From: a virus | DNA length: 64,000 bases | Virus record (IMG/VR): IMGVR_UViG_3300034190_002401 | Location: 21,459 to 85,458 of that record | Reading direction: 5' to 3' (one strand) | Shown: positions 10,451 through 24,058 of the stretch, in pieces | Layout of the letters: each line of letters begins with the position of its first letter | Position numbering within the stretch: position 1 is the stretch's first letter | The notes under the pieces: generated by a model | Databases searched by the model: none | What the model saw: only the letters and a program-made list of their open reading frames with translations | What the model was told of the DNA's origin: nothing | Program-made: the position numbers and the translations under genes

Positions 10451-11415
10451 CGCATCACCGACTTCAATAACATAAAAGCCAGTTCCATCGGTTCTCCTGC
10501 GTTTTTCATATTATTCTGATAACCAAAATAACCAGCAGCGCCCTGTGCATCCATCTCAGCAACAAGGTCTTCAGGTGGTACTTGATTCGGGTCTACCGCC
10601 GCTTTTGCAGGAACACCAATTTGAGAAGAGCCGACTTTAGCATTCTGTGTTTGAAGAGGGGTTTGTTCGACCCCCGGTAGCATCTGACCCATCTGTTCCA
10701 TGGTCATGGTAGGCACTCCGGCAGAGCCGGTTGGTGTCTGGTAAACTTGGTCAGCATATGACTGTCCTGCTCTAACATCAGGATTAGGAGCGACATTTTG
10801 CAGCATTGATGGGTCTACGTTGCCTAGTCCTGCTGCTCCAAGACCGGTAGGTGCTGCTGGTGCTGCTGGGTTGAACATATTTCTCTGTATACCCTTTTGA
10901 CCTGATACCACTTGATTACCTCCGGGCATGGGTGTGCCGTATATTCCCAGTTGGAAGTTTTCTGGTATGTTGAAGTCCGGCGAGGCGGCAGGTTGTGCTG
11001 CTCTTTCTCTACGTACTGCTACTTGAGTATCATAATGCTGCGGAGGGGCAACATTACCACCGGGTGGCATTTGGGCGTTGAACGCTTCCATTCCCATTCG
11101 ATTTGCCCTTTCTAACTTCTTTTTCTCTTTGTGCTGTTCTCTAGCCTCAACACCAGAATCTATGGTTTTACCTGCTCCGAGATAAGTACCTACACCACGA
11201 CCAGCAGCCGTTTGTGCTGCGCTGAATGCATCCTGCTGGTTCTCGCTTGCATCTGCTAGGGATGTCAGTGCTGAAAGTCCACCGAGAGCACCACCTACAA
11301 TTTTTCCGGGTTTGGTCTTAACTCTGAATAGGTCTTGGAGTGCTTGTCCCCCGTAGGCGTTTGCTAGAGATGTCATAGCACTAGGGGACTTGACCAGAAC
11401 CTTGCCTTTCTTCAT
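10447..11415 (-). CDS. Low-complexity Gly/Ala/Pro/Gln-rich putative virion or ejection protein
   Basis: Start re-called at ATG 11415 (overlaps the upstream TGA). C-terminal PMELAFMLLKS motif. Confidence 0.7.
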   Translation of the reverse strand: MKKGKVLVKSPSAMTSLANAYGGQALQDLFRVKTKPGKIVGGALGGLSALTSLADASENQQDAFSAAQTAAGRGVGTYLGAGKTIDSGVEAREQHKEKKKLERANRMGMEAFNAQMPPGGNVAPPQHYDTQVAVRRERAAQPAASPDFNIPENFQLGIYGTPMPGGNQVVSGQKGIQRNMFNPAAPAAPTGLGAAGLGNVDPSMLQNVAPNPDVRAGQSYADQVYQTPTGSAGVPTMTMEQMGQMLPGVEQTPLQTQNAKVGSSQIGVPAKAAVDPNQVPPEDLVAEMDAQGAAGYFGYQNNMKNAGEPMELAFMLLKSVMR

Positions 11416-13655
11416 CACTCTCCCCCCAGTGTGACCTTGACCACCTTGACTACTGATGGTTTGATTTTGTATGCCTTGGCAATCCTGTCCCAATCGCCCT
11501 TGCTGTTGGATATGGTTCTGACATCCTGCTTGGTGATACCGAGTTTCATGGCGAGGAATGACACGTCATCCTCCTTGTTGGCACTCAACTTCTCCTTGGG
11601 CATCTGCTTGAGCACAGCCACGTCCCTTTTAGCCTCAAGCATCTGGACTCTTTCCATTGCTTTCACCAGTCTGTCTTCGATGGATAGTGTATCGAAACTG
11701 GTTGCCACTGGGAAGGAGTCAGTCAACTTTGTTTGATAAGGGCTTTGTGAAGCACCAAAAGTTTTGACTGCTTCCATGAGTTTTTGCCTTTGCTGCTCGT
11801 CAAGAGAAAGAGGGTCTACTGGTTGCTTACCAGTCTGTTGGAAATACGATGGAAGACCGAACATTGGCTCTTTTTGCATTCTTCTGGATATAGCCTCTCC
11901 TACTTTCTTCCGGTATTCGTCATCCATACTAGCGAAATCAGGTGGTGCTGCTTCGGGTTGTGCTTCTGGTTTCGCCATCGGCTCTGAGTCGTCTGCCGCT
12001 AGCGGAGAGTCGTATGCCTCTGTCATTGCGCTCGGCACGAAGTAGTTCTGCATGTGCTCAGGCAGTGGTCTGTTGACATCGAGGTGACCATCTAGATACT
12101 TGGGGACTAGACCGGGAGCGGCCTCGCCTGACACAGGTGCGAACTCACGCACCGTGCCACCGTGACCCAATGTGACGAGAGAACCTAAGAGGGAGAACAT
12201 GTCTTTCTGACTCTGAGAGGTCTCATGAGCAGGCTCTTCTTGGGCGAAGTTAGTGAGAGCGTCTAAACTTCCTATGACACCTGAGAGTGCGAGGAACTCG
12301 GCTGCTGGCATATGAACCGCCTTGCCCTTCTTCTCGTGAGTTCCCAGAGTGTTACCGGCAGTGACCCTCTCCATTGCGTTGTCGAACATCTGCTGTCCTT
12401 GCCCCTTCAAATCGGGGTGTCCTATCAGGGTATCTTTGAGAGTATTCACCAACTTATTGACACGTGATGTCTTCTGAGCGGGGTTGCCGAGCATGAATTG
12501 AAGAGCATCAGGACTCATGGCCATCTGGTCTATCAAATTATCAAGTTTGGGAAACTTCTTTCCAAATCTAGTCTCCTCGTATATCTCCCTGACTGTAGGT
12601 CCTTCAACAGGACCTGATGGGTCTTGTCTCGTGAATATGGGAACGTCTAGCATCTCGGTGTTGTTCTTGTTGAGATTGGAGACAATCGCTGGTAGCAATT
12701 TTAACATGTATTCACGATAGTTTTCTTTCTTTATATTAGTGCCACCCGGATTCTTTACTCCCTCTCCATATTCGGGAAGAGGATTGAAGATGTCAAGAGG
12801 CATGTGTTGAATCATCTCCCAGTTGTGAACGTTGTCGTGCACCACATCACCTACGGATGAGTGTCCCAGCATCTCCCTGAACTCAGGTGGTAGTGTCATG
12901 TCATCTGCTAGGTTCTCACCGACCACGCCTCTCAGTCTCCTAGTGTTGGGGGATATGTGCCTGCCTGAGATGTAGCCATGCGTGATTCCCTCATCGAAGT
13001 TTGATTTGTAGTTGAAGTCCTCCTTGAGAGTATTATGTAGATAGGGTGCGAATGGTATCCTGTACGACTCAGGGTGCTGTGCTAGACCCTGCTTGGAGTG
13101 CTTGAGACGGGCATCGCTGCTCATGTTGAGGTTGATGAAAGTGCCACCCTTGCCACGAGCGGAGAACTGGTTCGCCTGCTCTGTAGTTTTCGGACTGGAG
13201 AAATCACCCTTGGTCAGCCTCCTCCATTCTGGTGACATGATGTCCTCAGGCAGGCTCTGGTTCTTCGCATCCTGATGGTCTTCGTTGTAGTCGCCTATCG
13301 CATCGCTGATTATCTCCCTAGCGAGTTTACCATTGCCGACTATCTTGGACACCTTCGCTATCAGTGCGTCGATTCCGTGTCGGTGCTCGTTGCCGTGTAT
13401 GTCGGTGTAGACGTGCTCGCCATCAGCCCCCATTCCCCAATCTCCCTCTGCTGCCCTGTCACCGTATCTGGCGTTCTTGGGGAGGTCGTATCCCATGTCA
13501 TTGGTGGGGTTGAGGTCGTGGTACTGGTCTGGGTGAGTGTCTCCTAAGAACACCAACTCACCAGTGAGAGGGTCAACGGTGTACGTTCCCTCTCCCTTTC
13601 TGAGCATGCCACTTGCGAGTAAGGCATGTGTGACGGATTTGAAAAGCAGGCTCAT
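11415..13655 (-). CDS. Large putative virion protein with an HTH-like C-terminus
   Basis: 746 aa, coupled to both neighbours; LAMKLGITKQDVRTI is HTH-like. Confidence 0.75.
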   Translation of the reverse strand: MSLLFKSVTHALLASGMLRKGEGTYTVDPLTGELVFLGDTHPDQYHDLNPTNDMGYDLPKNARYGDRAAEGDWGMGADGEHVYTDIHGNEHRHGIDALIAKVSKIVGNGKLAREIISDAIGDYNEDHQDAKNQSLPEDIMSPEWRRLTKGDFSSPKTTEQANQFSARGKGGTFINLNMSSDARLKHSKQGLAQHPESYRIPFAPYLHNTLKEDFNYKSNFDEGITHGYISGRHISPNTRRLRGVVGENLADDMTLPPEFREMLGHSSVGDVVHDNVHNWEMIQHMPLDIFNPLPEYGEGVKNPGGTNIKKENYREYMLKLLPAIVSNLNKNNTEMLDVPIFTRQDPSGPVEGPTVREIYEETRFGKKFPKLDNLIDQMAMSPDALQFMLGNPAQKTSRVNKLVNTLKDTLIGHPDLKGQGQQMFDNAMERVTAGNTLGTHEKKGKAVHMPAAEFLALSGVIGSLDALTNFAQEEPAHETSQSQKDMFSLLGSLVTLGHGGTVREFAPVSGEAAPGLVPKYLDGHLDVNRPLPEHMQNYFVPSAMTEAYDSPLAADDSEPMAKPEAQPEAAPPDFASMDDEYRKKVGEAISRRMQKEPMFGLPSYFQQTGKQPVDPLSLDEQQRQKLMEAVKTFGASQSPYQTKLTDSFPVATSFDTLSIEDRLVKAMERVQMLEAKRDVAVLKQMPKEKLSANKEDDVSFLAMKLGITKQDVRTISNSKGDWDRIAKAYKIKPSVVKVVKVTLGGE

Positions 13656-14971
13656 GCTGTTCGACCCGCCCTGCTGGTGTAGATACCAACAGGGTCAGCA
13701 CCATGCATCTCCTCTTCCTCTATGTTCTCTGTTGGTCCATTGGGTTTGCTGGTCTGGTCTCTTGAGTTAGAGGGGTGTTTTGGTAGATTAGAACCACCAC
13801 CTGAAGTGTCCTTGTCTCCCTTCCCTTTCTTCTTGTTCTCCTTCCTGTCAAGTAGCCTTGCCACCTTTTGTGCGAGTATCCTCAGTTCCTGCTTGTCTCC
13901 CCATGTCGTCTTTCGACTCTTGCCTATCATCGACATTGATTGATTAGACATTCTAGGGGAGAAGGATTGTGTAGAGCCACCCATGTTGAGATGCGGCATA
14001 CCACTGATTCTAGGTGGTACTATTGGAGGAGCACGGTGTGGTTTCAGTCTAGGTCTTGGGACTTTCGGCCTCATCTCACCCGGTAGTTTGGATTGGATTG
14101 TACCTGCACCGGTCTCACCTGCCTTGTACGACCTAGGGTTCTTCGGATTGGGTGTTGACTCTGTGACTCTGACGTTTCCTGTTCTTTTCCTACCACCTTG
14201 AGCACCCATGTAACTCCTGTATGCACCGGGGTCTTTGCTCATCGGTTGTTTGGTTGCGATGGCTCTGTGTTCCATCTCGACGGAGAGTGGCGCTTGCATC
14301 ATTCCTCTTTTCTTGCCTCTCGTGACACCTCTTCTCTTGGCCTTGTACGAACGCTCGGTGGCGTTGATACCACCACTCATCCCTCCCGGTCCTGTCTTGA
14401 ACTGCCCTGTGCTGGGCTTGAACTTCTTTCTCCTCTCCTGCACCGCTTCCTTGTCGTCTGCTCTACCTGACTCACTGAGTGGTCTGAGCATAGCGGTATC
14501 CGCATTCTCACCGAATGACTTGAGCAATGAGGACCAAGCATTCTCCATTGGTTCACTTGTGAATACCGGGTGGCCGTATGCCGCTCCCGGTCCTTTTGCC
14601 TGATTTGCTAAACTGGTCATGAACCCACCATTGCCGGGCGGTCCAGTGAATGCGTTGATTTCTCCCTCGTTCGTCAATCTACCTGACAGGCTTCTGGGGT
14701 CTTCTTCGGTATCGTCTCTCGTTTCTGATGGGTCGTCCTTGAATTGTTGGAGCATAGCAGGTGTGACCTTGACGTGTTTTCTGTTCTTGAGTTTCTTCTC
14801 CTGCATGTCCTGCTCCTTCTGCTTCTTCTCCTTCTCAGCATCTAGATACTCAGGGTCACCGGGGTTGTAGCGACTCTCGTATCCATCGTTGTACCTGAAC
14901 ATCGTGGATGATTCGCTTCTTGAGTTGTATAGTCTGGTATCGCTACCACGACCCATCATTCCCTCGGTCAT
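13652..14971 (-). CDS. Basic, largely disordered putative internal head protein
   Basis: 439 aa, rich in K/R/G/P; internal PMENAWSSLLKS motif. Confidence 0.75.
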   Translation of the reverse strand: MTEGMMGRGSDTRLYNSRSESSTMFRYNDGYESRYNPGDPEYLDAEKEKKQKEQDMQEKKLKNRKHVKVTPAMLQQFKDDPSETRDDTEEDPRSLSGRLTNEGEINAFTGPPGNGGFMTSLANQAKGPGAAYGHPVFTSEPMENAWSSLLKSFGENADTAMLRPLSESGRADDKEAVQERRKKFKPSTGQFKTGPGGMSGGINATERSYKAKRRGVTRGKKRGMMQAPLSVEMEHRAIATKQPMSKDPGAYRSYMGAQGGRKRTGNVRVTESTPNPKNPRSYKAGETGAGTIQSKLPGEMRPKVPRPRLKPHRAPPIVPPRISGMPHLNMGGSTQSFSPRMSNQSMSMIGKSRKTTWGDKQELRILAQKVARLLDRKENKKKGKGDKDTSGGGSNLPKHPSNSRDQTSKPNGPTENIEEEEMHGADPVGIYTSRAGRTA

Positions 14972-15387
14972 ATCGCCTCAGTCTCCCCCATCATGGAGTT
15001 AGCGGTCTGTGATATAGCATCTGATAGTTCGATGTAAAACGACTTGACGAATGGCGGGTTGGTGAAGCACTTGCCCATTCTCCTGCATTCGTCCTCGAAG
15101 AGCGGTAGTAGTGATTTGAGATTGTCCCTCACTGGCCAAACCGTCACTGGGTCGTCATCCTCAGATAGGGTCTTCAAAGCATCCACTATGTCATTGAGGA
15201 ACGATGAGTACTCAAGGTTGCCATATGAATCTCGATTGACGTAGAACTTGAATCTCTTGTACACCAAAGTGGCGTAGTCTAGTAGTACGGGTAGTTCGTT
15301 TTCATTGATTACCCTACCATTCTTGATGAGTCTGTAGCCCGGATGGGACATCTGTAGTAAATCAGTAATTACTATTCTCTGCTCCAT
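14968..15387 (-). CDS. Hypothetical protein
   Basis: 139-aa ORF with a GGTGG RBS, coupled to the next gene. Confidence 0.7.
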   Translation of the reverse strand: MEQRIVITDLLQMSHPGYRLIKNGRVINENELPVLLDYATLVYKRFKFYVNRDSYGNLEYSSFLNDIVDALKTLSEDDDPVTVWPVRDNLKSLLPLFEDECRRMGKCFTNPPFVKSFYIELSDAISQTANSMMGETEAI

Positions 15388-15396
15388 CTCCCCACC

Positions 15397-16074
15397 TCAC
15401 TCGCCTTGCTGTTCCAATAACTGCTCTTTAATCCTCTTCCAACTATCAGGGCTTTCCTTTGCTAATTCGACTTTTAGTATGTTAAACGTCTGGTTGATTT
15501 GAGTACCATCACTGTCTGCCCCCCAACTGTCATTTAACTTCACTAGGTCTTTGATGCTCTCCCTCACCTCTTTGTGTAGTTTCACTGCATCACCGACGAA
15601 ACCATCTTCATGCACACTACCGTAATCTAACAACTCATTGAACTTGTCGTTGAGTTTCTCAACATTAGTACGGAGAACATTGACTTCTTGACCTAGAGTG
15701 ATAGCGACCTCGAATGCTGCTGCCTTCTTGACGAGAGGCTGGAAGTGGTGTTTCATGTGGTGATAGACGGAGTTCTCAGAGCATCCAATGACTTCTGCTA
15801 TATCCTCACTAGGCAGTATACCCTCGAAGTATCCTGTCTCGAACTCCCCTCTCCTGTCATGTGTGCAAACCACACAGGAATGGTTGGAATCCATGTGATA
15901 CTCACCCATGTGATTCTTGAAGTGACGGTCTGCTGTATTGGCCCTCCAATTCATGTCTTTATCCAGTTGCTTACAACTGATTTCACCGTTCAAGAGAGAC
16001 TGTTCTAGTTGCTCTCTATCATCAGATTGGCAAAAGGCGCAGGACCTCTTGACCACTCGCTCTCGCTCGGTCAC
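15397..16074 (-). CDS. Tandem Zn-finger/HTH protein, candidate terminase small subunit
   Basis: Two CxxC...HxxxH repeats with an HTH (EDIAEVIGCSENSVYHH), followed by a coiled coil. Confidence 0.55.
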   Translation of the reverse strand: MTERERVVKRSCAFCQSDDREQLEQSLLNGEISCKQLDKDMNWRANTADRHFKNHMGEYHMDSNHSCVVCTHDRRGEFETGYFEGILPSEDIAEVIGCSENSVYHHMKHHFQPLVKKAAAFEVAITLGQEVNVLRTNVEKLNDKFNELLDYGSVHEDGFVGDAVKLHKEVRESIKDLVKLNDSWGADSDGTQINQTFNILKVELAKESPDSWKRIKEQLLEQQGE

Positions 16075-16122
16075 GAGTGACCGGAGGTATAATCACCAAA
16101 TGAACGTTGTTGATTTATAGAT

Positions 16123-16389
16123 TTACATCCGACTTATTCTGGTGTATATCGTAGTCAGTCCCATCATGGAGATAAATATCGCAATCATAGCCATTGAAGC
16201 ATCAGTTTGACTGATGTCAGAGGCCTTGAAGACCAAAACGAAAAGCATGACGAGTATTGCGCTGATGAGTTGAATCATCACCATGTCGATAATGACGCTT
16301 CTCTTGTGGGAGAACATGTTTAACGACAAGTTGGCCACTTGGTTCGGCACTCCTAGGGGAAGCGAACCTCTGCTAGGTCCTGACATCAT
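16123..16389 (-). CDS. Small two-TM membrane protein (holin-like)
   Basis: Two hydrophobic helices: IIDMVMIQLISAILVMLFVLVF and AMIAIFISMMGLTTIY. Confidence 0.7.
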   Translation of the reverse strand: MMSGPSRGSLPLGVPNQVANLSLNMFSHKRSVIIDMVMIQLISAILVMLFVLVFKASDISQTDASMAMIAIFISMMGLTTIYTRISRM

Positions 16390-17027
16390 ACTCTACCCCC
16401 GAATAGTGCTCTGTTGATGAAACCACCAGTGGCTTGTCCTACCGATTCCATCATACCGGGGTCTGCTAATGCTGTGTTCAACATACCCTGCATGAGAGAT
16501 TGGTCAGCCATCTGTAGTATCTGCTGTCTCTCAGCCTCAGCCTTCTGTATTATCTGCATGGATGTATTCTGTAGACTGTTTAGTTGTGCTATAATATTCT
16601 CAGCACTTAGAGTTTGTAGGTCGCTAGGCATAGAAGTGACATCAAGTGAGAGACTACCTGTAGTCTCGTCCATAATGAACTTGGAGTTCTTCAACACGTT
16701 GAGAAGCGAGAATGTAGTGATATTCGACAGCATCTCGATGAATATAGGCATGTTCTGACTGATGATGAACTTGTCAATTGGTTGAATTGTGTTGAGCATC
16801 GAAGCCAGAATCTGAGTTTCCGAAGGTGGGGCTATTGGTGTGTTGTATTGTTGAGGAGATATACCTGCTCCCCCTAGAATACCACCCATTAGAGGGGAAG
16901 TGCCGTATGAATTAGGAGCATACCCGTTTTGCATGGGTTGTTGACCGAAAGTGTTTGATTGACCAGTGCCTAGACTAAGCGAGGAGGTGTTTTGAGTGCC
17001 CCCTAGATTTGAGAGTCCTAATGTCAT
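16386..17027 (-). CDS. Hypothetical Gln/Ser/Gly-rich protein
   Basis: 213-aa ORF, coupled by ATGA overlaps. Confidence 0.7.
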   Translation of the reverse strand: MTLGLSNLGGTQNTSSLSLGTGQSNTFGQQPMQNGYAPNSYGTSPLMGGILGGAGISPQQYNTPIAPPSETQILASMLNTIQPIDKFIISQNMPIFIEMLSNITTFSLLNVLKNSKFIMDETTGSLSLDVTSMPSDLQTLSAENIIAQLNSLQNTSMQIIQKAEAERQQILQMADQSLMQGMLNTALADPGMMESVGQATGGFINRALFGGRV

Positions 17028-18058
17028 TGTATCACCTCTGCTGGGTTTGCTGCTGTTGCTATAGTGGGCACTACCGGAGGCGGTGCTTGCATAGTCGCAG
17101 CGGGGTTCAGGGTTTGAGCCTGTTGGTTGAGAACTGTATTGAACGCTTGTTGTGCTGCTAATTGTTGTTCATGTGCCTCTCTTTGAAACATTCTCATGTC
17201 AAATTGCACCATGGTGATGTCATTTGAGCCTGTTTCTGGATTTGGTATGTGCCATACGTTGATTCCCTTCGTTCTCTGTGAGTCTTTCTCAATCTCTTGG
17301 AAGAAAGGCTCGTACTTCTGAACTAAGTCGGGTGCTCTAACCTCGTTGGATTGCAGTGATGACACTGGTATAGTAACTAGACTGACTCCTTTCTTCACCT
17401 TGTCCTTGAATCTGCTAGGTCTCATCTCATCTTCCTTGTCTTGAGCGTCTTCCCATTTGCAGAGCAGGTGATAGAGATGTAGATGTTCAGGGCAGTATGT
17501 ACCTTTGAGAGTCTTACCGCTGGTTACTCCACTCCTCGCTAAGAATGCTTCAGTTTGTCCTGAAATAGGATTCTGCCAGTACATGTCCCAAAGACTTCTA
17601 CCTGTGTCTTCGTCTGTGATTCTCGCATAGAGGTTGTCATATTCTATGAGTTGCTTGCAATCACAACCATCGACAACACAAGTGCCGCTGTCTTTGGTGT
17701 ATCTGTATGGACTTCCCAACCACCTTCTTGGGTCTAAAACAGACCTCCTTGTTGGTTTGAGTAGTCTGTATGCCTGTTTGATGTCTTTTCTTCTGGCTTT
17801 GCGAGGGTCAGCGTGATTAGAGGGGTAGAAGTTCACTTTTGGAACTTCGAGATTCTTCTGTCCTGCTATCTGCTGCATCTGCTGCTGCGCTATTGCTTGT
17901 TCCATAATCGCTGCTTGATTAAACTGAGGATTGCCCATTTGGGCCATGTTCAACATTGCTGCGTCATTCAAATTGCTTAGACTCTGAGTTTGCATCGGAG
18001 TTCTTGTTATTGTGCGATACATATTATCGGGTACATCTAAGAGACCGCCTACCATCAT
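17024..18058 (-). CDS. Hypothetical protein with a putative Zn site
   Basis: CVVDGC...CPEH, with Gln-rich ends. Confidence 0.7.
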   Translation of the reverse strand: MMVGGLLDVPDNMYRTITRTPMQTQSLSNLNDAAMLNMAQMGNPQFNQAAIMEQAIAQQQMQQIAGQKNLEVPKVNFYPSNHADPRKARRKDIKQAYRLLKPTRRSVLDPRRWLGSPYRYTKDSGTCVVDGCDCKQLIEYDNLYARITDEDTGRSLWDMYWQNPISGQTEAFLARSGVTSGKTLKGTYCPEHLHLYHLLCKWEDAQDKEDEMRPSRFKDKVKKGVSLVTIPVSSLQSNEVRAPDLVQKYEPFFQEIEKDSQRTKGINVWHIPNPETGSNDITMVQFDMRMFQREAHEQQLAAQQAFNTVLNQQAQTLNPAATMQAPPPVVPTIATAANPAEVIQ

Positions 18059-18240
18059 TCAACCTCCGCTGGTGTCACATGAATAGACATTTGCCCGTTT
18101 TCTGCCGATAAACGCCATTCTAATTTACTTCCAGCAGTCATACCAAACTGCTGAACAATCCACATAGGTATAGTAGTTCTAAGTGAGTTACTACCCCCTC
18201 CTGTGGGGACGAGTGTTGTGGTAGTCTTACCCTTCGCCAT
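18055..18240 (-). CDS. AbrB/MazE/SpoVT-family DNA-binding protein
   Basis: SLRTTIPMWIVQQFGMTAGSKLEW is a swapped-hairpin signature; start re-called at ATG 18240. Confidence 0.8.
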   Translation of the reverse strand: MAKGKTTTTLVPTGGGSNSLRTTIPMWIVQQFGMTAGSKLEWRLSAENGQMSIHVTPAEVE

Positions 18241-18275
18241 GGAGGTCGCACACCCTACTACATCAAAAAGGTCAC

Positions 18276-18989
18276 TCAAGAGGTCAAGAGTTCTACTAGG
18301 GTTGGTTCAACATTCCAACCCACACGAGTAGCCATGAAAGCACGCTTTGTTGGTAACCTTGCTTTCTGCAAGCGAATTAGGTCATCTCTGAAGGGGTCGA
18401 ATATCTTGTGCTCACCTATTCTGTTCTGCTGCCATAGTTCAGCAGCCTTCTTGTCGAAGAACCTGTCTGCCTTATTAGCCACTAACATGACCATTCTGGG
18501 TGTGTATTTCTTTCCCTTCAATCTGCTTCTGAGAGTTCTATATCTGTAGTCTCTCTGGATAAGTCTATCTACAAGATATTTGAAACCAGCAACTTGCTCT
18601 GCGCCTTCAGGCCCACCAGCAAAGGCTCTGTCATCAAACACAAACATGACACATTCCACTTGTCTAGACACCATATCGTCAATCCACAGATTCCAGAATC
18701 TCTCTTGACCACCTATGTCTGCTGAGTATACCACTCTCTTTTCGCCTTGCCAAGATATTCTCTTCCTAGTGGGTTTTGGTAGCATATACCTTGTTAGTAA
18801 CTTGAAATGTTTGGTTCTCTCATCCTCGTGTATCTCTTCCATCTCACCGGGAGTGGTCATATAGCGGTCTAATGTGGTCTTGCCAACCATGCTAGTGCCG
18901 TAGATACCGACTTTTCTTGGCTTCCATGAGTTGTAGAGGTGTTGTCCGTATATGGCTACACCAACGAGTACACTCCCCCCGCCTACCAT
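18276..18989 (-). CDS. Small Ras/Arf-superfamily GTPase
   Basis: G1 GTSMVGKT, G3 DIGGQ (DIGGQERF, Arf/Rab-like), G4 NKAD; hydrophobic N-terminus. Confidence 0.9.
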   Translation of the reverse strand: MVGGGSVLVGVAIYGQHLYNSWKPRKVGIYGTSMVGKTTLDRYMTTPGEMEEIHEDERTKHFKLLTRYMLPKPTRKRISWQGEKRVVYSADIGGQERFWNLWIDDMVSRQVECVMFVFDDRAFAGGPEGAEQVAGFKYLVDRLIQRDYRYRTLRSRLKGKKYTPRMVMLVANKADRFFDKKAAELWQQNRIGEHKIFDPFRDDLIRLQKARLPTKRAFMATRVGWNVEPTLVELLTS

Positions 18990-18998
18990 TTACTTCAC

Positions 18999-19259
18999 CT
19001 AGTTGGGCAATTTAGAGTAGAGCCAATCAGCAAAACCCTCAACCTGCTGATATGTCCACTCAACTGTCCAACCCCAAAGCGTGAAATCACTGTATGATTC
19101 CATTGCACTAACTGCTAGCGATGCTCCTAGTGCCGCAAGTATGGTTCTAAGCCAACCGACACCCCATTCGTAGGTGTTATCAACAGTGTTAGCAAGGTGC
19201 ATTGCGCGTAGAGTTTCCTCTACAGAGTCGTCTTTTGGAGTCTTGAATATCCTACCCAT
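18999..19259 (-). CDS. Small membrane protein
   Basis: Hydrophobic, Trp-rich WGVGWLRTILAALGASLAVSAM segment. Confidence 0.7.
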   Translation of the reverse strand: MGRIFKTPKDDSVEETLRAMHLANTVDNTYEWGVGWLRTILAALGASLAVSAMESYSDFTLWGWTVEWTYQQVEGFADWLYSKLPN

Positions 19260-19897
19260 TAGTTATCGCCACTACCCTTCGTATATCTAAGGTCTGGCGT
19301 TCCGTCCTTCTTCAAACGGACATTATTCGATGATATGTCTCTAGGCGGAACTACTGATTCACGAACCATTTCATCAGCCAGAGAATCTAAGCCAAAACTT
19401 GTTGATTGAGTAACATTAGCGTTATGAGACGGAGGTTTTGATGTGTTAAATAGGTCAACTCCTAATCCTGAGATACCGGATTGACTGTTAGACATCATGG
19501 AAGGGGGCATCTTACCGGGATTCTGCTGCATCCAAAGCAGTTCCTTCTCCAACTGCATCTCCTGCATTCGTAGTTCCATGTCCGCTCTACGCTGGTCGTA
19601 ACTGAATTGCTGCTCTCTGAAACGGTAGTCCCTCTGCCTCTGCATCTCTGACATTCTAACTCGCTCTTGCATCTGTTCTTCAAAGAACATCTTGAACAAG
19701 TAATACGCTAGAATCTGAATTGCTAACGCTCCCATAGCGTATGTCATTCCGTTGACATACTGATTTGCATTCTCTCCACCGGGCAACCACAATCCGGCAT
19801 CGTAGATACCTATTGCGACTCCCACTAGAGCCGACTGAGTTAGTATCAACCCAGTCAATCTCATTTCTGATTTATCCGAAGGGTCTTGTCTGCTCAT
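19259..19897 (-). CDS. Two-TM membrane protein with a coiled coil
   Basis: Two TM helices, a Gln/Glu/Arg coiled coil and a C-terminal KKDGTPDLRY; start re-called at ATG 19897 (GAGGT RBS). Confidence 0.75.
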   Translation of the reverse strand: MSRQDPSDKSEMRLTGLILTQSALVGVAIGIYDAGLWLPGGENANQYVNGMTYAMGALAIQILAYYLFKMFFEEQMQERVRMSEMQRQRDYRFREQQFSYDQRRADMELRMQEMQLEKELLWMQQNPGKMPPSMMSNSQSGISGLGVDLFNTSKPPSHNANVTQSTSFGLDSLADEMVRESVVPPRDISSNNVRLKKDGTPDLRYTKGSGDN

Positions 19898-19951
19898 CTT
19901 AGTGACCTCTAGAAAGACCCCACGAGGGTGGCTATCATAAGCCTTCTGCAC

Positions 19952-20980
19952 CTAATTCAGTGTCTGGTAAAGATTAGAACCCGGATAATTAGTATAATAA
20001 TCAGGTTTCTTCGGAGTAATAGATGACGATTGATATTGTTCGGTAATATCACCACGAGCATCTCTGAAAGATGGTTTTTGCTGACCAGCAGTATACATGA
20101 CTGCCTCTTGGCCATACTTCGCTGCCAACTCCAGAAGTTTGGCCTGTTGCTCTGGGTTTACTCTAGGTATGGTGAATGAGGGTTCTGTGTCTCCCCCCTC
20201 TGTCCATTTAGAACCCCCCTCGGCTGATATTATGTCTGGTAGTTTAAGCCCCGCTAGTTCTGCAAGCATTTGATTACTCAACCCTTCTGCTCTTTTCCTA
20301 CCCACGGTTGTTGCTCCCGGTTTAGTGCCTATGGTCATGGTGGGGTACTTGTGAGGTCGATGTGCACCCTCTATTTTAGAGGGGGAAAACTCAGAAAGAG
20401 TAGTCTGCTTTGATTTTATCACTCTCAAAGTCCCTTTGTCTTTGAAGTGTCTAGCCCTGTTCGCGTGCTCCCCCTCTAACGTGAGCCTCCCACCTTGTGT
20501 GTGACTGACATCCTTACGATTGTGAGACCCGTAGATGCCTCGTCGTCTTCTTTCCCTATTGAGTTCTTCACGGTACTTCACACGTTCAGGGCTGGACTCG
20601 TATTTTGTGTCATATTCCTTCTTATGACGCTGGGCTTCTGGTGATAACTCCCTTGCTTTGAGGACTGCAACCCCCTTAACAATCGTCGGTTTCCCACCAA
20701 TCCCCTGTTTCTTGGCTCTTTTGCGTTTTGTGGCTGACCTTTTCTGTCCACTTGACATCGAACCAGAAGTCTTTGGAGTTTTGTCTGAAACTTTCACCGA
20801 TGGCCTGCACTTCGGGTATCCTTTTCCAGACAATTTTGCTTTCCCCCTCCCGCATGGTGGGTGTTTCCCATCCTTGTCCTTTCTCGATACGTCTACCCAC
20901 TTCTCCTTGAACCATCGGTTCAGGTTCTTTACCACTAACGTATTGTGGCAGGTGCAGCGGGAGTCTGAATCGGTACTCAT
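19952..20980 (-). CDS. Multi-domain basic protein (DUF5872-like + HNH-like + C-terminal domain)
   Basis: LNRWFKEKWVD...PCGR...YPKCRP; KDVSH...HANRARH; modules separated by hydrophobic-x-K motifs. Confidence 0.7.
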   Translation of the reverse strand: MSTDSDSRCTCHNTLVVKNLNRWFKEKWVDVSRKDKDGKHPPCGRGKAKLSGKGYPKCRPSVKVSDKTPKTSGSMSSGQKRSATKRKRAKKQGIGGKPTIVKGVAVLKARELSPEAQRHKKEYDTKYESSPERVKYREELNRERRRRGIYGSHNRKDVSHTQGGRLTLEGEHANRARHFKDKGTLRVIKSKQTTLSEFSPSKIEGAHRPHKYPTMTIGTKPGATTVGRKRAEGLSNQMLAELAGLKLPDIISAEGGSKWTEGGDTEPSFTIPRVNPEQQAKLLELAAKYGQEAVMYTAGQQKPSFRDARGDITEQYQSSSITPKKPDYYTNYPGSNLYQTLN

Positions 20981-21168
20981 TTCTTCTTACCTTTCCCTCG
21001 AAACTTTCCCCTGCAATATTGTACAGCCCATCCATTAGCATAGGCAGACGGATAGACCTTGAACTTTCTTTTTGCAGCGGCTTTACCTGCTGGACAGAGT
21101 TTCTTTTCAAGTGTGTCCCATGCACCATTCATACCGACGCAATGACCACAATCACAAGAACCTATCAT
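20977..21168 (-). CDS. Small basic protein (KFKVYPSAYANGW family, DUF5872-like)
   Basis: Motif common in marine phage proteins; carries AWDTLEK. Confidence 0.7.
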   Translation of the reverse strand: MIGSCDCGHCVGMNGAWDTLEKKLCPAGKAAAKRKFKVYPSAYANGWAVQYCRGKFRGKGKKK

Positions 21169-21353
21169 ATCACAAACACCATTTTAGTAATTTTATCAGC
21201 GGCTTTTCTCTGAGCATACAGTAAACTGTAGCAGGGACATCGAGGTGGGGTCATTGAGCATTTCATCACTCCCTTTTCCATGCATTTGCATGGATTCTTC
21301 TTATTTCCACCACAACAACAACTATCTCTTTTCAATGCCATCAGCAGTTCCAC
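21165..21353 (-). CDS. Small Cys-rich protein
   Basis: CCCGG...CKC...C...CPC; coupled to neighbours. Confidence 0.6.
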   Translation of the reverse strand: MELLMALKRDSCCCGGNKKNPCKCMEKGVMKCSMTPPRCPCYSLLYAQRKAADKITKMVFVI

Positions 21354-22120
21354 CTCTTCAGTGCTGCACCCTTTGGTGTGAGTTTGCCGTCCTTGCTGGT
21401 AGGACCTTTACTCCCACCCATGCGAGCGCAGAAGGACTTTCTTCTCTTCGCCTTTTTACTACCCGGTTTGAGTTTGGATGGTTTTGTCGTGACCGGGGGT
21501 TTGAGGTTCGCACCGGTTTCTCTCTTGAACTTGGCACGCCCCTTTGCGTTCAGACCGCCCTTCTTGTGATGCCTCTTCGGGTTGTATCCGTGAAACGGCT
21601 TGGATTTCTTCTTGGCCTTCTCGAAATAGTCCTCAATCAGAGTGCCGAATGCCTGTGTGGAAGGAGAACAGCAGTCACAAGTCGCTGTGACTTGCACGTA
21701 AGCGTCTGATTTCATCGTCATGGGGGCTAGATTGGCCCTAGGAATGCCTCCACTCCTCACATTACTTTCAGTACCACTGAAAATACCACCGCTAGGCTCT
21801 GGTTGTGCGACTGGGTTAGCCAGTCCTCCACCCCTCACGCCTACTACACCCACATTGCTCTGAGGCAGACCGAACTTTTTGGCCCTTTCTAATGCGAACT
21901 GGTACGCTAGTTCTGGATTGTCGGTTGTGTAGGACACCCTGTCCTCATTCCTGAGGCTGGGTGGGACGTAGTGTTTCGAGCGTTTTTTCGGGTCTCCACC
22001 CATGATTCCTTGGTCGAGAACGCCCTGCATGTCGATTGTTCCGTGGTACTCACTGACTGGACCAAGGCTGCTGGGAAAATCAGAGTGGAACTCACCGAGT
22101 TCTGTCTGTCTGCTTACCAT
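21341..22120 (-). CDS. ADP-ribosyltransferase-like domain fused to a DUF6321-like basic domain
   Basis: YHGT...VLDQGI...SYTTDNPELAYQFA suggests the ART fold; GGLNAKGRAK...RRKSFCARM...ALKRWNC is DUF6321-like. Confidence 0.6.
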   Translation of the reverse strand: MVSRQTELGEFHSDFPSSLGPVSEYHGTIDMQGVLDQGIMGGDPKKRSKHYVPPSLRNEDRVSYTTDNPELAYQFALERAKKFGLPQSNVGVVGVRGGGLANPVAQPEPSGGIFSGTESNVRSGGIPRANLAPMTMKSDAYVQVTATCDCCSPSTQAFGTLIEDYFEKAKKKSKPFHGYNPKRHHKKGGLNAKGRAKFKRETGANLKPPVTTKPSKLKPGSKKAKRRKSFCARMGGSKGPTSKDGKLTPKGAALKRWNC

Positions 22121-22132
22121 GAATAGCCCTCC

Positions 22133-22678
22133 TTAGAGTCTCTGTGGAGGACTCCTTCGCTCGATTGGCGAGTTTTGTCGATTCACCTGTGATAGAATCT
22201 CATTTATCGCATTCCGGTAGTAGTCTGTGGCTTCCGGTGGTGCTTCTCTACGTGGAGGACTTGGGTCTGGCTTCTTGTCCATGGGGTTGGGCATCTCGAA
22301 CAGGTCTGGCCTTTCTCTCTTGAGTTGCTCTTGGTCTATGTGTAGACCTGCATTAAGTTTTTCTTCCAAGTCTTCTCTTTCTGGAGAATGGTCGAGGTAG
22401 TCATATTTAGACTCAAAAAAGTCCCCTCTATGCATCTTTTCTTCATCCGGTATAAGTGGTAGACCATATTCGTCAAAGTTCTCGTTTTCTCTGCTCAGAG
22501 GCCTGCCCATTGCGTCTATGAGAGGCTCGCCCGGCTCGAACTTGAGGAACTCCCATGCTTTCTTCATGGCTTTCTCGTCTGGTTTCGAGGTTTCAGTAGG
22601 CTTCTTGGGCATCTTAGGGCCGACAGCGATAACCAGTGTCATCCCTGCTTTCTTACCCTTGTCCTTCATACATATCAC
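22133..22678 (-). CDS. Hypothetical AWxxLK-motif protein
   Basis: MKKAWEFLK followed by an acidic, Pro-rich region. Confidence 0.7.
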   Translation of the reverse strand: MICMKDKGKKAGMTLVIAVGPKMPKKPTETSKPDEKAMKKAWEFLKFEPGEPLIDAMGRPLSRENENFDEYGLPLIPDEEKMHRGDFFESKYDYLDHSPEREDLEEKLNAGLHIDQEQLKRERPDLFEMPNPMDKKPDPSPPRREAPPEATDYYRNAINEILSQVNRQNSPIERRSPPQRL

Positions 22679-23220
22679 TGGTTATTTCTCTGCTCTGGTA
22701 TCTGAGGGGCGGAAACTCCTATTTTTGATGGTGCGCTGTCCCTACCGGTCATACCGGTGTTCATGGCATTCATGTCCCTCATGTGCTCTACAAAGTACTC
22801 TTGAGCGATATCAGAACTCAATTGGTGCTCATCATCATCCATTCCCTGCTCTACCGCAGACAAACCGGGGATGATGCCTAGTTTGTTCATGTAGTGATGT
22901 AGTATCTGCTGCTCCTTCTCGTTCCTAGGCTTGTGGTCATCGAAGATAGTGCCACCATGTGCGTCGAAGTCAGCCTGAGCCTGCTCGAACTCATCCAATT
23001 CAGGACCATCCGAGTAGTCCTCGTACTCATCTCTGTACGATTTCCTGAGTGTGTTGTAGTCGTATTGTAGTTTGAGGGCGGCCTTTCTCATGACATAGGC
23101 CTTCTTCATCTCGCCGCCGCAGCCCATCTTCTGCATGCAGTGTGCTTTTTTCATGCCGCATCCGGGGCACTTCTCATTGTCTGCTTTCAATAGAGTCCAT
23201 GCTGTGTCAAATGCGCTCAT
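22675..23220 (-). CDS. Hypothetical AWxxLK-motif protein
   Basis: Begins MSAFDTAWTLLKA. Confidence 0.75.
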   Translation of the reverse strand: MSAFDTAWTLLKADNEKCPGCGMKKAHCMQKMGCGGEMKKAYVMRKAALKLQYDYNTLRKSYRDEYEDYSDGPELDEFEQAQADFDAHGGTIFDDHKPRNEKEQQILHHYMNKLGIIPGLSAVEQGMDDDEHQLSSDIAQEYFVEHMRDMNAMNTGMTGRDSAPSKIGVSAPQIPEQRNNQ

Positions 23221-23226
23221 ATTCTT

Positions 23227-23466
23227 CTATCTCCTTCTGGATACTCTTACTAGGCCTGTCTGCCTACGCATCCTCGGACGTGTGTTACCCCTATCTAGGT
23301 TGCGTTTGTAGCGAGCCTTCGTCTTGCGATTCTTCGTCTTCCTCGCTAGACGCTGGACCTTGGCTTTAGCCCTCGCTTTTGGTCTATTTGAGATATATTG
23401 AGAGGTTTTCATCCCGAACTGACCCTTCTTGAGTGACTCGAACGCCAAATCGAACTCAAACCCCAT
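23227..23466 (-). CDS. Small highly basic (protamine-like) protein
   Basis: FDLAFESLKK followed by an R/K-rich tract. Confidence 0.7.
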   Translation of the reverse strand: MGFEFDLAFESLKKGQFGMKTSQYISNRPKARAKAKVQRLARKTKNRKTKARYKRNLDRGNTRPRMRRQTGLVRVSRRR

Positions 23467-23519: not shown

Positions 23520-23870
23520 ATGGACTCGGATTACGACATTGAGAAGTTTCTTCCGGCTCTAGTCGCTGGATTGGCCAGAATAGGTCCAGCAGCGGCAAAA
23601 TTAGGCTCAAAAGGCCTACAATCCGCTAAAAAAGTAGGTGTAGCGGCCAAAAACTCGAAAATGGGCCAAAATATGGCCAATTTAGCCGATAAAGGCAAGG
23701 AAATGAAGGAAACTTTGGATGCAGCGAAGGAAAGTCCGATGGGACAGGCCATGAGCAGCCTGCAAGAGGCAGCAGCACGAAATCAGCAGGATACAGCCAG
23801 AATGGAGCAAGAAGCACGTCAAAGGATGATGTCTGGTGCTTCCACTGGAAGTACAACCACTCGTTCTTAG
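23520..23870 (+). CDS. Small protein with an amphipathic N-terminal helix
   Basis: Only plus-strand gene in the left arm; fills the gap; TATA-like element upstream. Confidence 0.65.
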   Translation: MDSDYDIEKFLPALVAGLARIGPAAAKLGSKGLQSAKKVGVAAKNSKMGQNMANLADKGKEMKETLDAAKESPMGQAMSSLQEAAARNQQDTARMEQEARQRMMSGASTGSTTTRS

Positions 23871-24058
23871 GTTCTCATGCCCTTGTAGCGTGCGTAAAGC
23901 ATGCCTGCTTCCTCTTGAAGCCTCAAATCATCGGAGTTCATCATCTTGAGGATAGTCCCAGTGATGAATTGGTCCTCTTTAGAGGTGAAATCTACCCCAT
24001 TCTCCTGATGCTTGAGTAGAAGCCACGCCGCAGCGAAGGCGCTCTCGGATACTGTCAT
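23867..24058 (-). CDS. Small AWxxLK-motif protein
   Basis: SAFAAAWLLLK; own TTATTAAAG promoter about 23 nt upstream. Confidence 0.7.
   Translation of the reverse strand: MTVSESAFAAAWLLLKHQENGVDFTSKEDQFITGTILKMMNSDDLRLQEEAGMLYARYKGMRT

Follow-up and report, generated by a model that had tools for sequence, protein, structure and literature searches.

The lysis genes of bacterial phages are usually fast-evolving and exchanged among phages, and no lysis system is known to contain a GTPase. The defining feature of the Arf family of small GTPases is presented in 10.1101/2024.02.28.582541 as an N-terminal amphipathic helix that switches with nucleotide. In the account given in PMC10927574, ArvA, a small GTPase with an N-terminal helix, drives membrane vesiculation in euryarchaea with small and Zn-ribbon proteins; ArvB is DUF2073 and ArvC is the Zn ribbon DUF2072. 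For tailed viruses of archaea, one source (PMC10791045) calls the players of egress 'completely uncharacterized'.

The window analyzed here is a stretch of 64,000 nucleotides from a group-A-type magrovirus, a tailed virus infecting abundant ocean archaea. It contains a cassette of genes around a small GTPase that we consider probably to be one functional, membrane-associated GTPase module. Our literature search found no paper describing this cassette. It is an undescribed candidate for how tailed archaeal viruses act on, or exit through, the host membrane.

Layout of the cassette

Seven ORFs, all on the minus strand, span positions 16123-19897, and the seven co-oriented genes of the first-pass annotation are thus borne out. 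Adjacent ORFs overlap by 1-4 nt or are separated by a 10-nt gap. They are:

19259..19897, minus strand: core gene 1, 2-TM coiled-coil protein, 212 aa (with a GTG at 19951 as a possible earlier start)
18999..19259, minus strand: core gene 2, '1-TM' protein, 86 aa
18276..18989, minus strand: core gene 3, divergent Arf-like small GTPase, 237 aa
18055..18279, minus strand: clade-specific accessory gene, SpoVT/AbrB (MazE-type) swapped-hairpin protein, 74 aa
17024..18058, minus strand: core gene 4, Cys/His protein, 344 aa
16386..17027, minus strand: core gene 5, Gln/Asn-rich protein, 213 aa
16123..16389, minus strand: accessory gene, 2-TM protein, 88 aa

Purifying selection is strong on all seven ORFs, with dN/dS = 0.02-0.12 in comparison with loci L002 and L003 (dS 0.6-1.7), and they are therefore not chance frames. 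The likelier start of core gene 1 is the ATG at 19897, because a GAGGT ribosome binding site lies 8 nt upstream of it and the orthologues start there too. The AbrB-type protein might be 56 aa in length, if an internal ATG at 18225 is the start. In the window the cassette lies upstream of an HTH gene and TerL. A PADLOC scan of eight proteins at E<=0.01 matched no family of defense or toxin-antitoxin systems.

Motifs and fold of the GTPase

The GTPase has a G1 P-loop of the form GxxxxGK[ST] (GTSMVGKT, residues 31-38), a G3 sequence DIGGQERF (91-98) and a G4 sequence NKAD (172-175). G31, G36, K37, D91, G94, N172 and K173 are invariant among 16 sequences of the family, down to 21% identity. D175 is nearly so, one distant member reading NKAL. 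The nucleotide-binding site is predicted to be intact. At G2 the candidate residue, T46, does not vary within alignment A8 but falls in a region modeled below pLDDT 50, and G5 is MAT in the window protein and SA in distant relatives. The protein has the fold of a small-GTPase (Ras-superfamily, TRAFAC) G domain. The structure models made for the cassette have modest confidence, with pLDDT of 64.5 and 67.2. The first-pass annotation had called the GTPase intact. This stands for G1, DxxG, NKxD and the hydrophobic N-terminus, but the 'catalytic' glutamine of DIGGQ is not invariant. In 21 close relatives its position is occupied by Gln (12 proteins), Glu (7) or Asp (2), and in distant relatives by His, Ala, Phe or Asp.

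The N-terminus is hydrophobic, with a top 15-residue Kyte-Doolittle (KD) window of 1.65 at residues 1-15. No 19-residue window reaches a KD of 1.2, and the helix is shorter than a standard TM helix would have to be. Nor is the helix amphipathic (Eisenberg mean H = 0.55, moment 0.10-0.27). The structure prediction places it at residues 4-22, with pLDDT about 44-51, and it aligns with the N-terminal helix of the Asgard protein ArfR1. The stretch from G1 to G3 is long, about 52 residues, with a long and poorly modeled switch-I/interswitch insert, and a polybasic insert at residues 142-166 has Lys or Arg at 10 of its 25 positions.

Relatives and origin of the GTPase

The best match of the GTPase profile among solved structures is Asgard GerdArfR1 (PDB 8OUN/8OUM, E = 4.5e-10), followed by Arl8, Rab33B and Arl3/5/1. 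In hhalign it matches the P0203 family of uncharacterized prokaryotic Arf/SRbeta-like GTPases with a probability of 98.8%. One member of that family passes the cut-off of the Pfam Arf model (38.8 bits vs 22.3), and its proteins carry the names 'signal recognition particle receptor subunit beta', 'GTPase SAR1 family protein' and 'ADP-ribosylation factor-like protein [Bacteroidia bacterium]'. The nearest clusters in the ESM Atlas are annotated as Arf. These results agree with the Arf-like identity proposed earlier. MglA, EF-Tu and Rag, which belong to other GTPase families, come within about 1.5 Z units. The Pfam Arf model PF00025 matched neither the GTPase at E<=0.1 nor anything in the genome search at E<=0.01; Roc alone gave a match, at E = 1.2e-3 and under its cut-off. 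We conclude that the protein is probably a very divergent Arf-like G domain.

Like the Arf family (Asgard ArfR1; eukaryotic Arl8, Arl1/2/3 and Arf1/6), the viral GTPase has a DxGGQ-type G3 and a helix before the G domain. It differs from that family in lacking a Pfam Arf match, in the hydrophobic but non-amphipathic character of the helix, in its long G1-G3 stretch and polybasic insert, and in the variable G3 glutamine. It is also encoded by a virus, with unrelated partners. Genes of the P0203 family are differently placed; they lie on metagenome contigs adjoining Ser/Thr kinase-TPR and TPR genes, with no TM neighbors. They are accompanied by a conserved protein of about 180-205 aa that shows no relationship to the Zn protein of the virus (hhalign E = 0.72).

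When 1.84 billion proteins were searched with a profile of the GTPase, its own family alone came back, with no cellular homologue. Among the genomes of 185,579 species its relatives are confined to 4 short, inconsistently binned contigs, and there is no homologue in 50,697 phage records. Between clades the median identity is 33% for the GTPase, 38% for the MCP and 35% for the protease. The median identity within the window's clade is 72% for the GTPase and 79% for TerL; within the P0145 clade it is 80% for the GTPase and 77% for the MCP. The GTPase has dN/dS = 0.03-0.04. Its divergence is comparable to that of the capsid protein, and it has the status of a core gene. Recent capture from a host is ruled out by the profile search together with this capsid-like divergence, and the GTPase is not the isolated acquisition that the first-pass annotation had raised as an objection to its own reading.

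The partner proteins

In the core gene 1 protein two stretches are hydrophobic (KD 1.71 and 1.55 over 19 residues), and after them comes a charged, coiled-coil-like helical region; the protein thus fits its earlier description as a 2-TM coiled-coil protein. It is predicted to be N-in/C-in, and its Gln/Ser/Pro-rich tail ends in a conserved motif of the type LKKDGTPDLRY. The core gene 2 protein had been described as having one TM segment. There is indeed a single hydrophobic segment, clearer in other clades, but here it is short (15 residues, KD 1.89) and marginal. Its N-terminus is conserved as MGRIFKTP.DDS.E.TLRAMH, and its C-terminal tail of 33 residues includes four Trp.

The AbrB-type assignment holds through the orthologues, 13 of 17 of which match PF04014 at E<=0.01 (best 1e-5), although the window copy, with 19 bits, falls short of the cut-off of 24.7. 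The Cys/His residues of core gene 4 are C127, C132/C134, C189 and H192. Three clades keep C127 and C189 and, almost without exception, H192, with a second Cys at +3 or +5, a pattern from which we infer that the protein may bind metal. Both its termini are Gln-rich tails, and no known fold was recognized in it. The core gene 5 protein is Gln-rich as described before (9.9% Gln); its N-terminus is of low complexity, its central domain (..LQTLSAENI..) is conserved, and its C-terminus is rich in Gly. Gln/Asn-rich low-complexity regions occur in three of the five core proteins (13-17% Gln+Asn).

The terminal 88-aa protein has two clear TM segments (KD 2.86 and 1.73) and basic ends, and is predicted to be N-in/C-in. 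Its two TM segments are as first reported, but 'holin-like' would describe its shape only. It has no holin match in Pfam, PHROG or NCBIfam, an absence that does not exclude a holin given the diversity of these proteins. No lysin match was found among the cassette proteins and the close neighbors scanned, nor did the cassette proteins match holin, lysin, spanin, ESCRT, ArvB, ArvC or membrane-remodeling families.

The cassette shares with phage holin lysis cassettes small proteins of one or two TM segments with charged ends, and a location in the late region. Unlike them it has no holin-family match and no adjoining lysin, spanin or endolysin, and its conservation greatly exceeds that of typical holins. 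The layout is also similar to that of the ArvA-ArvB-ArvC operon of Haloferax volcanii as outlined in PMC10927574, in which a small GTPase carrying an N-terminal helix comes first and a small protein and a Zn-binding protein come after it. The likeness is an analogy of layout only; the profile search with the viral GTPase reached no cellular GTPase, and DUF2073 and DUF2072 matched none of ten proteins scanned at E<=0.1. In a polarity switch of the MglA/MglB type a Roadblock/LC7 partner would be expected beside the GTPase. No roadblock/MglB family matched its neighbors at E<=0.1, in agreement with the first-pass annotation.

Conservation across magrovirus clades

Five core genes keep the order 2-TM coiled-coil, ~75-aa 1-TM, GTPase, Cys/His and Gln-rich in four clades, between which the GTPases share only 30-42% identity. 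In the window's clade the seven genes form one colinear series in 79-80 of 80 loci (core genes 1 and 2 and the AbrB-type gene present in 79/80; core genes 4 and 5 and the terminal 2-TM gene in 80/80). In the P0145 clade 72 of 80 loci have the complete, colinear set of five core genes; counting only loci with room for each gene, these are found in 77/77, 80/80, 80/80, 80/80 and 75/75. The core order is seen in both loci examined of the P0128 clade, and in all four examined of the 13 loci of the P0126 clade.

The similarity varies from gene to gene. The core gene 1 protein matches its P0128-clade equivalent in blastp (2.7e-10 and 1.5e-7), and has the architecture alone in common with that of the P0145 clade (hhalign E = 0.14). 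A 1-TM protein of ~72-79 aa is encoded directly upstream of the GTPase in 7/7 loci examined from two other clades and 4/4 from the fourth. The Cys/His protein matches those of other clades at 1e-27 to 1e-42 in blastp. The Gln-rich protein matches the P0126 clade at 3e-19 to 3e-10, and the P0145 clade in hhalign with E = 1e-3 and 21% probability.

The seven-gene synteny that had been proposed therefore holds for the five core genes, but not for the other two. The AbrB-type gene is absent between the GTPase and Zn genes at the loci examined in the three other clades, and appears specific to the window's clade. The terminal 2-TM gene is found in two clades only: an 81-aa 2-TM ORF follows the Gln-rich gene in two of four P0126-clade loci, with no detectable sequence similarity to the 88-aa protein, and no 2-TM ORF is present there in seven examined P0128 and P0145 loci. 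At locus L084 ORFs with one hydrophobic N-terminal segment follow the Gln-rich gene.

In the P0145 clade the cassette has the MCP and three small genes on one side and the tail-tube region on the other. At one P0128-clade locus (L081) it comes after the thermosome gene, and in the window's clade there is nothing between the MCP and tail genes. The cassette moves as a unit and occupies different places within the late gene arm, among head, tail and packaging genes. Lysis cassettes of bacterial phages are found in two such positions, before the terminase genes in lambda and between the head and tail genes in P2. The cassette appears to be magrovirus-specific and vertically inherited. Distance-matrix correlations revealed no cassette-specific co-evolution beyond common ancestry, TerL being as well correlated with the GTPase as the partners are.

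Possible functions of the cassette

Our tentative reading is that the cassette encodes a late, membrane-bound GTPase switch complex whose role is most likely egress, a role to which we assign a probability of about 0.4. The function proposed in the first-pass annotation, GTPase-timed lysis/egress or a membrane compartment, is likewise a hypothesis, and finds partial support in that the neighbors are conserved with the GTPase and the gene is not a recent capture. Membrane association is suggested by the TM-like segments of two core partners together with the hydrophobic N-terminus and polybasic insert of the GTPase, and late timing by gene position. The GTPase would be anchored to the host membrane from the cytoplasmic side through its hydrophobic helix and its polybasic insert, with the viral 2-TM and 1-TM proteins next to it. 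When bound to GTP it would recruit or release the soluble Cys/His and Gln-rich proteins as effectors or regulators. The assembly could then open or remodel the host membrane late in infection and release the progeny, a step that would be gated by the binding and hydrolysis of GTP. The AbrB-type DNA binder and the small 2-TM protein would be additions to this core in the window's clade. Some features of the GTPase count against egress: its helix is not amphipathic, in contrast to Arf, and is too short to be a standard TM helix, and the expected catalytic Gln is variable. So do the lack of any holin, lysin, spanin, ESCRT, ArvB or ArvC match in the cassette, its slow evolution compared with usual phage lysis genes, the distance-matrix result on co-evolution and the modest confidence of the structure models.

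A bolder form of this reading, which we regard as doubtful, is a self-contained membrane-remodeling machine based on the Arf-like GTPase that breaches or vesiculates the host membrane and releases tailed virions. Two membrane adaptors, a zinc effector and a condensate-prone Gln-rich protein would surround an anchored GTP switch. If true, this would be the first egress system for tailed archaeal viruses, and a prokaryotic-virus counterpart of Arf/Sar1-driven membrane remodeling outside eukaryotes and Asgard archaea.

Conservation of the cassette at the level of capsid and terminase is no less compatible with a structural or assembly role than with egress. The complex might be a membrane-tethered platform for procapsid initiation, DNA packaging or head-tail joining, or might seed a membrane-attached condensate through the Gln-rich tails, with the GTPase as an assembly checkpoint. 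The cassette is inside the morphogenetic arm in those clades where flanking genes are identified, is as conserved as MCP and TerL, and in two clades stands immediately ahead of the gene for a Zn-ribbon/HTH protein, a candidate small terminase or late regulator; the low-complexity regions of three core proteins would also suit such a role. Yet the cassette would seem dispensable for generic head-tail morphogenesis, as related head-tail modules in the 50,697 phage records function with no homologue of it. Assembly of tailed viruses is normally cytoplasmic, and the shifting position of the cassette relative to head and tail genes is unexpected for part of one assembly step. We consider this alternative unlikely.

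The GTPase complex could instead redirect host vesiculation, division, secretion, or envelope or S-layer biogenesis without being an exit device. A membrane-anchored, Arf-like GTPase as predicted here would suit this, the closest non-viral relatives adjoin Ser/Thr kinase-TPR signaling genes, and ArvA provides a case of euryarchaeal vesiculation by a small GTPase, as reported in PMC10927574. However, the cassette lies among late and structural genes, apart from the early or replication arm, its proteins show no similarity to ArvB or ArvC, and no host homologue is close enough for mimicry, which together make host take-over distinctly unlikely.

Flanking the cassette are genes that resemble packaged cargo. 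An A-[WF]-x2-3-L-[KR] tag occurs in seven flanking late proteins, and small TM and low-complexity proteins are known among the ejection proteins of tailed phages. This could point to a virion-borne entry or ejection complex, or to superinfection exclusion, with the membrane proteins controlling the passage of DNA. But the tag is present on none of the seven cassette proteins, which are therefore not capsid cargo by their neighbors' route. The GTPase requires cytoplasmic GTP, and exclusion systems are usually accessory and variable and not core genes, so this explanation is very improbable.

We give almost no weight to an accidental neighborhood, a recent host-derived GTPase, or an AbrB/MazE-type toxin-antitoxin or defense pair: close relatives have the entire arm in the same dense, colinear arrangement, so that synteny within a single clade proves little, and the AbrB-type gene matches the MazE antitoxin family, but that gene is missing from three clades and PADLOC gave no matches, the protein-profile and genome searches returned no cellular homologue beyond the few inconsistently binned contigs, and the five-gene order persists across clades at low GTPase identity while the flanking genes change.

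Cassette genes and their virus

All seven ORFs of the cassette are found on the minus strand at 16123-19897, exactly where the first-pass annotation had placed them, and neighbors overlap by 1-4 nt or lie 10 nt apart. The end at 19897 corresponds to the likeliest ATG of the first gene, with GAGGT 8 nt upstream and orthologues starting at the same point. Measured against the two closest non-identical relatives (loci L002 and L003), dN/dS is 0.02-0.12 at dS 0.6-1.7 for all seven ORFs. The ORFs of 74, 86 and 88 codons are therefore real genes.

The GTPase (237 aa, 18276-18989) contains the motifs GTSMVGKT, DIGGQERF and NKAD on which its identification was based. Its N-terminus is hydrophobic as described, though not amphipathic. 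The sequence bears out the hydrophobic segments described for the membrane proteins; the single helix ascribed to the 86-aa protein is present, but it is short in the window copy (15 residues, KD 1.89). The AbrB assignment holds at the level of the family, with a match to PF04014 in 13 of 17 orthologues. The 344-aa protein described as a Zn protein retains C127, C189 and nearly always H192 in three clades, with the second Cys at +3 or +5. A TM segment, recognizable fold or family was sought in the Zn and Gln-rich proteins, and none was found. Searches of the cassette proteins against Pfam, PHROGs, NCBIfam and PADLOC returned only weak matches to Roc, small_GTP and MazE, and the cassette proteins of the magrovirus clade named by the GTPase P0145 had no match in PHROGs.

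The complete virus record (G000) is 85,458 bp long with a CheckV completeness of 72%, and the window is G000:21459-85458. It encodes a portal protein, large terminase (TerL), family-B DNA polymerase and SNF2 helicase, together with an RFC-like clamp loader, a PD-(D/E)XK nuclease and a thermosome-type chaperonin. The SU10_MCP capsid protein and tail genes are just beyond it. A passage of Philosof et al. (2017, PMC5434244) credits group A magroviruses with an SNF2 helicase and a thermosome subunit, and because both genes match that description we read this virus as a magrovirus of group-A type, with Marine Group II archaea as hosts. Genes in 3-25640 are on the minus strand, including those for packaging and the portal, while those in 25952-62127, including the replication genes, are mostly on the plus strand. 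Downstream of a tail-tube-like gene, an ORF of at least 2,796 codons on the minus strand (L170 2-8389, equivalent to G000:2-8389) runs past the end of the record, and presumably encodes a giant tail or fiber protein.

Conservation of the cassette

In the clade of the window virus the seven genes are colinear in 79-80 of 80 loci (tblastn using the window proteins), with GTPases that are 68-100% identical. The two misses are L035, where the contig ends, and L018, in which the AbrB gene was undetected. Genes further down to TerL are just as colinear (HTH gene 80/80, TerL 76/80), so that synteny within this clade alone proves little.

More distant clades are more informative. The P0145 clade comprises 140 viral contigs, with a GTPase about 30-33% identical to that of the window. 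The gene order is 2-TM protein (141-165 aa), 1-TM protein (~75 aa), GTPase, Cys/His protein (224-240 aa) and Gln-rich protein (231-239 aa). Five loci were examined in detail, and among the 80 contigs fetched of the 140 these genes are present wherever the contig has room in 77/77, 80/80, 80/80, 80/80 and 75/75 cases respectively, with all five colinear in 72/80. The same five-gene order is found in both loci examined (2 of 4) of the P0128 clade, where in blastp against the window proteins the Zn protein matches at 1e-27 to 1e-42 and the 2-TM protein at 1e-7 to 1e-10. It is also found in all loci examined (4 of 13) of the P0126 clade. There is no AbrB gene in the examined cassettes of these three clades, and a small 2-TM gene 3' of the Gln-rich gene is seen only in the window's own clade and in 2/4 examined P0126-clade loci. 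The synteny suggested for all seven genes thus extends across four clades for the five core genes, but the AbrB gene is confined to one clade and the terminal 2-TM gene was seen at its position in only two. Profile comparison between two clades was not significant for the 2-TM proteins (E 0.14), and weak for the Gln-rich proteins (E 1e-3, probability 21%).

The surroundings of the cassette differ between clades. In the window virus its place is upstream of the gene for the HTH protein, several unknown genes and TerL, and the capsid and tail genes have no intervening gene. In the P0145 clade it is placed between a prohead protease-MCP-three small genes segment and the tail-tube region, and in the P0128-clade locus L081 a thermosome gene is followed by the cassette. 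The internal order is kept while the flanks change, and this is the best available evidence that the cassette is a functional unit. We estimate a probability of roughly 0.8 that it is one membrane-associated GTPase module.

The GTPase matches the core genes in divergence. Identities between the window virus and the relative's locus L092 are 38% for MCP, 35% for the protease, 33% for the GTPase and 23% for the tail tube. Within clades the GTPase is 72% identical vs 79% for TerL (window clade), and 80% vs 77% for MCP (P0145 clade). This agreement fits vertical descent of the cassette from an early magrovirus. Mirror-tree analysis (distance-matrix correlation, 70 loci) gave no cassette-specific signal, with values for the GTPase of 0.61 with the Gln-rich protein, 0.57 with the 2-TM protein and 0.57 with TerL. 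The gene immediately upstream (19952-20980, minus strand; DUF5872 match, E 1e-9) has a distance matrix that correlates poorly with those of all the cassette genes (Spearman 0.06-0.33), which suggests a recombination boundary at the upstream edge.

Family and origin of the GTPase

The window GTPase has no match to the Pfam Arf model; the Roc model gives E 1.2e-3, below the cut-off, and small_GTP gives E 0.018. A single-sequence search of the PDB found nothing significant. When the diverse profile A2 was compared with solved structures, the best match was the Asgard GerdArfR1 (8oun_A, E 4.5e-10), followed by Arl8, Rab33B and Arl3/5/1. Neighbors in the ESM Atlas are viral clusters annotated as putative GTPases and then bacterial Arf-annotated clusters, and database pipelines label some members of the family 'GTPase SAR1 family protein'. 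About 52 residues separate G1 and G3 in the viral protein, and a polybasic insert has 10 Lys/Arg in residues 142-166. The Gln position of G3 varies, being Gln in 12, Glu in 7 and Asp in 2 of 21 close relatives, and His, Ala, Phe or Asp in distant ones.

Close relatives are abundant in marine metagenomes, with 495 at E<=1e-3 from 1,024 candidates (71-86% identical among the matches listed, 120 of the 495), and a further 171 relatives are found in IMG/VR contigs. A 21-member profile searched against 1.84 billion representative proteins gave only 83 matches at E<=1e-3, mostly short fragments. Twelve were retrieved, including all those of at least 223 residues, and all twelve are members of the family; the weakest two, P0202 and P0203, are just 21-22% identical. 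In a scan of genomes from 185,579 prokaryote species, a magrovirus-type GTPase was found on four short contigs (L165-L168, 8-29 kb). Two are binned with a Maricaulis MAG (70% and 31% identical to the query), and one each with a Promethearchaeati and a Parvibaculum MAG. They are probably mis-binned viral DNA, not to be taken as host signals. Since the profile finds its own family and the genome contigs read as viral, the GTPase is not a recent host capture.

P0203, the most distant match, belongs to a bridge family labeled SRbeta, SAR1-family or Arf-like, with PF00025 in precomputed annotation. A member of this family exceeds the Pfam Arf cut-off (38.8 vs 22.3 bits), and hhalign of the viral profile with the family gives 98.8% probability (E 5.7e-17, 196 columns). 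Given this bridge to Pfam Arf, sequence comparison places the viral GTPase as a deep, virus-specific branch of the prokaryotic Arf-like GTPases. Relatives of P0129, P0158, P0160 and P0203 were sought among viral contigs and none was found. The genes of these bacterial-type P0203 relatives adjoin Ser/Thr kinase-TPR genes, and each GTPase gene is followed by one for a conserved 179-205-aa protein (L185 2255-2821, L186 6734-7297, L188 3057-3596, L189 1656-2273). This protein matched no Pfam family, and may be a dedicated partner or regulator of these GTPases. Compared with the viral Zn protein it is unrelated (hhalign E 0.72).

Within the Arf-like GTPases the viral protein thus belongs to a virus-specific branch, and its cassette has no described counterpart. 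The word 'GTPase' is absent from the main text of magrovirus and archaeal tailed-virus papers PMC5434244, PMC11706807, PMC10160649, PMC8651126, 10.1101/2025.10.05.680483, PMC10768690 and PMC12999244, whose supplementary annotation tables may list the gene, and no description of the cassette was found in literature searches on small or Ras-like GTPases of archaeal viruses, Poseidoniales viruses and Caudoviricetes. The viral branch, which is large, old and virus-specific and has prokaryotic relatives, widens the range of Arf-like GTPases and bears on how Arf-like switches became membrane-coupled before eukaryotes.

Possible roles of the cassette

Judged from charge distribution, both ends of the 2-TM protein would face the cytoplasm (N-in/C-in), along with the coiled-coil and the Gln-rich tail, and the 86-aa protein would be N-in, its four-Trp C-tail lying either at the interface or outside. 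[quoted passage not shown]

Seven late proteins, encoded to either side of the cassette, share a tag of the form A-[WF]-x2-3-L-[KR] (e.g. AWSSLLK, AWTLLK and AWSLLK). The genes are:

10447-11493, minus strand, tagged gene (motif)
13652-14971, minus strand, tagged gene (motif)
22133-22678, minus strand, tagged gene (motif)
22675-23220, minus strand, tagged gene (motif)
23227-23466, minus strand, tagged gene (motif)
23867-24058, minus strand, tagged gene (motif)
24711-25640, minus strand, tagged gene (motif)

The tag is found in 0/7 of the cassette proteins. If it is a capsid-targeting signal, the cassette products would not be cargo of that kind. No homologue of the GTPase turned up in a tblastn search of 50,697 phage records, so tailed viruses at large form heads and tails in its absence. 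Together, the topology, the absent tag and the lack of a phage homologue lead us to favor a late, membrane-directed and host-specific role.

The first-pass annotation had proposed GTPase-timed lysis or egress, or a membrane compartment. Egress of tailed archaeal viruses is explicitly called an open question in a passage of PMC10791045. Cell exit is an obvious unmet need for such viruses, and egress is a plausible role for the cassette that we hold tentatively, at somewhat less than even odds. Against it, conservation is very high, unlike that of typical lysis genes, no lysis family was recognized among the cassette proteins, and the timing rests on gene position only. The remaining weight is shared by roles as an assembly platform, in take-over of host membranes, and in entry or exclusion. 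According to a section of PMC10927574, membrane vesiculation in Euryarchaeota can be driven by the ArvA system, in which a small GTPase that has an N-terminal helix acts with a small protein and a Zn-ribbon protein. The layout is similar to that of the viral cassette, but no homology between them was found.

The Marine Group II archaea that are the hosts of magroviruses are uncultured. Conserved like capsid and terminase genes, probably membrane-associated and with a GTP switch at its center, the cassette offers five genes that could be synthesized for testing in a model archaeon.

Expression and flanking genes

Four oligo-dT libraries of marine RNA, all from one study, contain only short contigs (31-323 nt among the rows listed) scattered over 13000-23000. 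They are 90-99% alike and of low depth, too sparse to show transcription, timing or operon structure. The depth of 22-387 at 14670-15003, vs 0-5 elsewhere, coincides with very short pieces and loose ends, and is probably low-complexity sequence from other organisms drawn to a Lys/Glu-rich coding stretch.

The tagged gene at 10447-11493, just upstream of TerL, is hypervariable, with a tblastn match in only 7/80 otherwise colinear loci. Directly downstream of the cassette, 15397-16074 (minus strand) encodes a 225-aa protein with an N-terminal Cys cluster and a helical C-terminus. It has a weak HTH_20 match (E 5.6e-5, below the cut-off), is present in 80/80 loci of the window clade and has a homologue 3' of the cassette in the P0126 clade (blastp 1e-28 to 1e-37). 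We regard it as a candidate for a small terminase or for a late regulator. Between this HTH gene and the last cassette gene, a 48-nt gap (16075-16122, minus strand) contains a TATA-like CTATAAAT, with GGTGA ~20 nt before the GTG start, and a new transcription unit may begin there.
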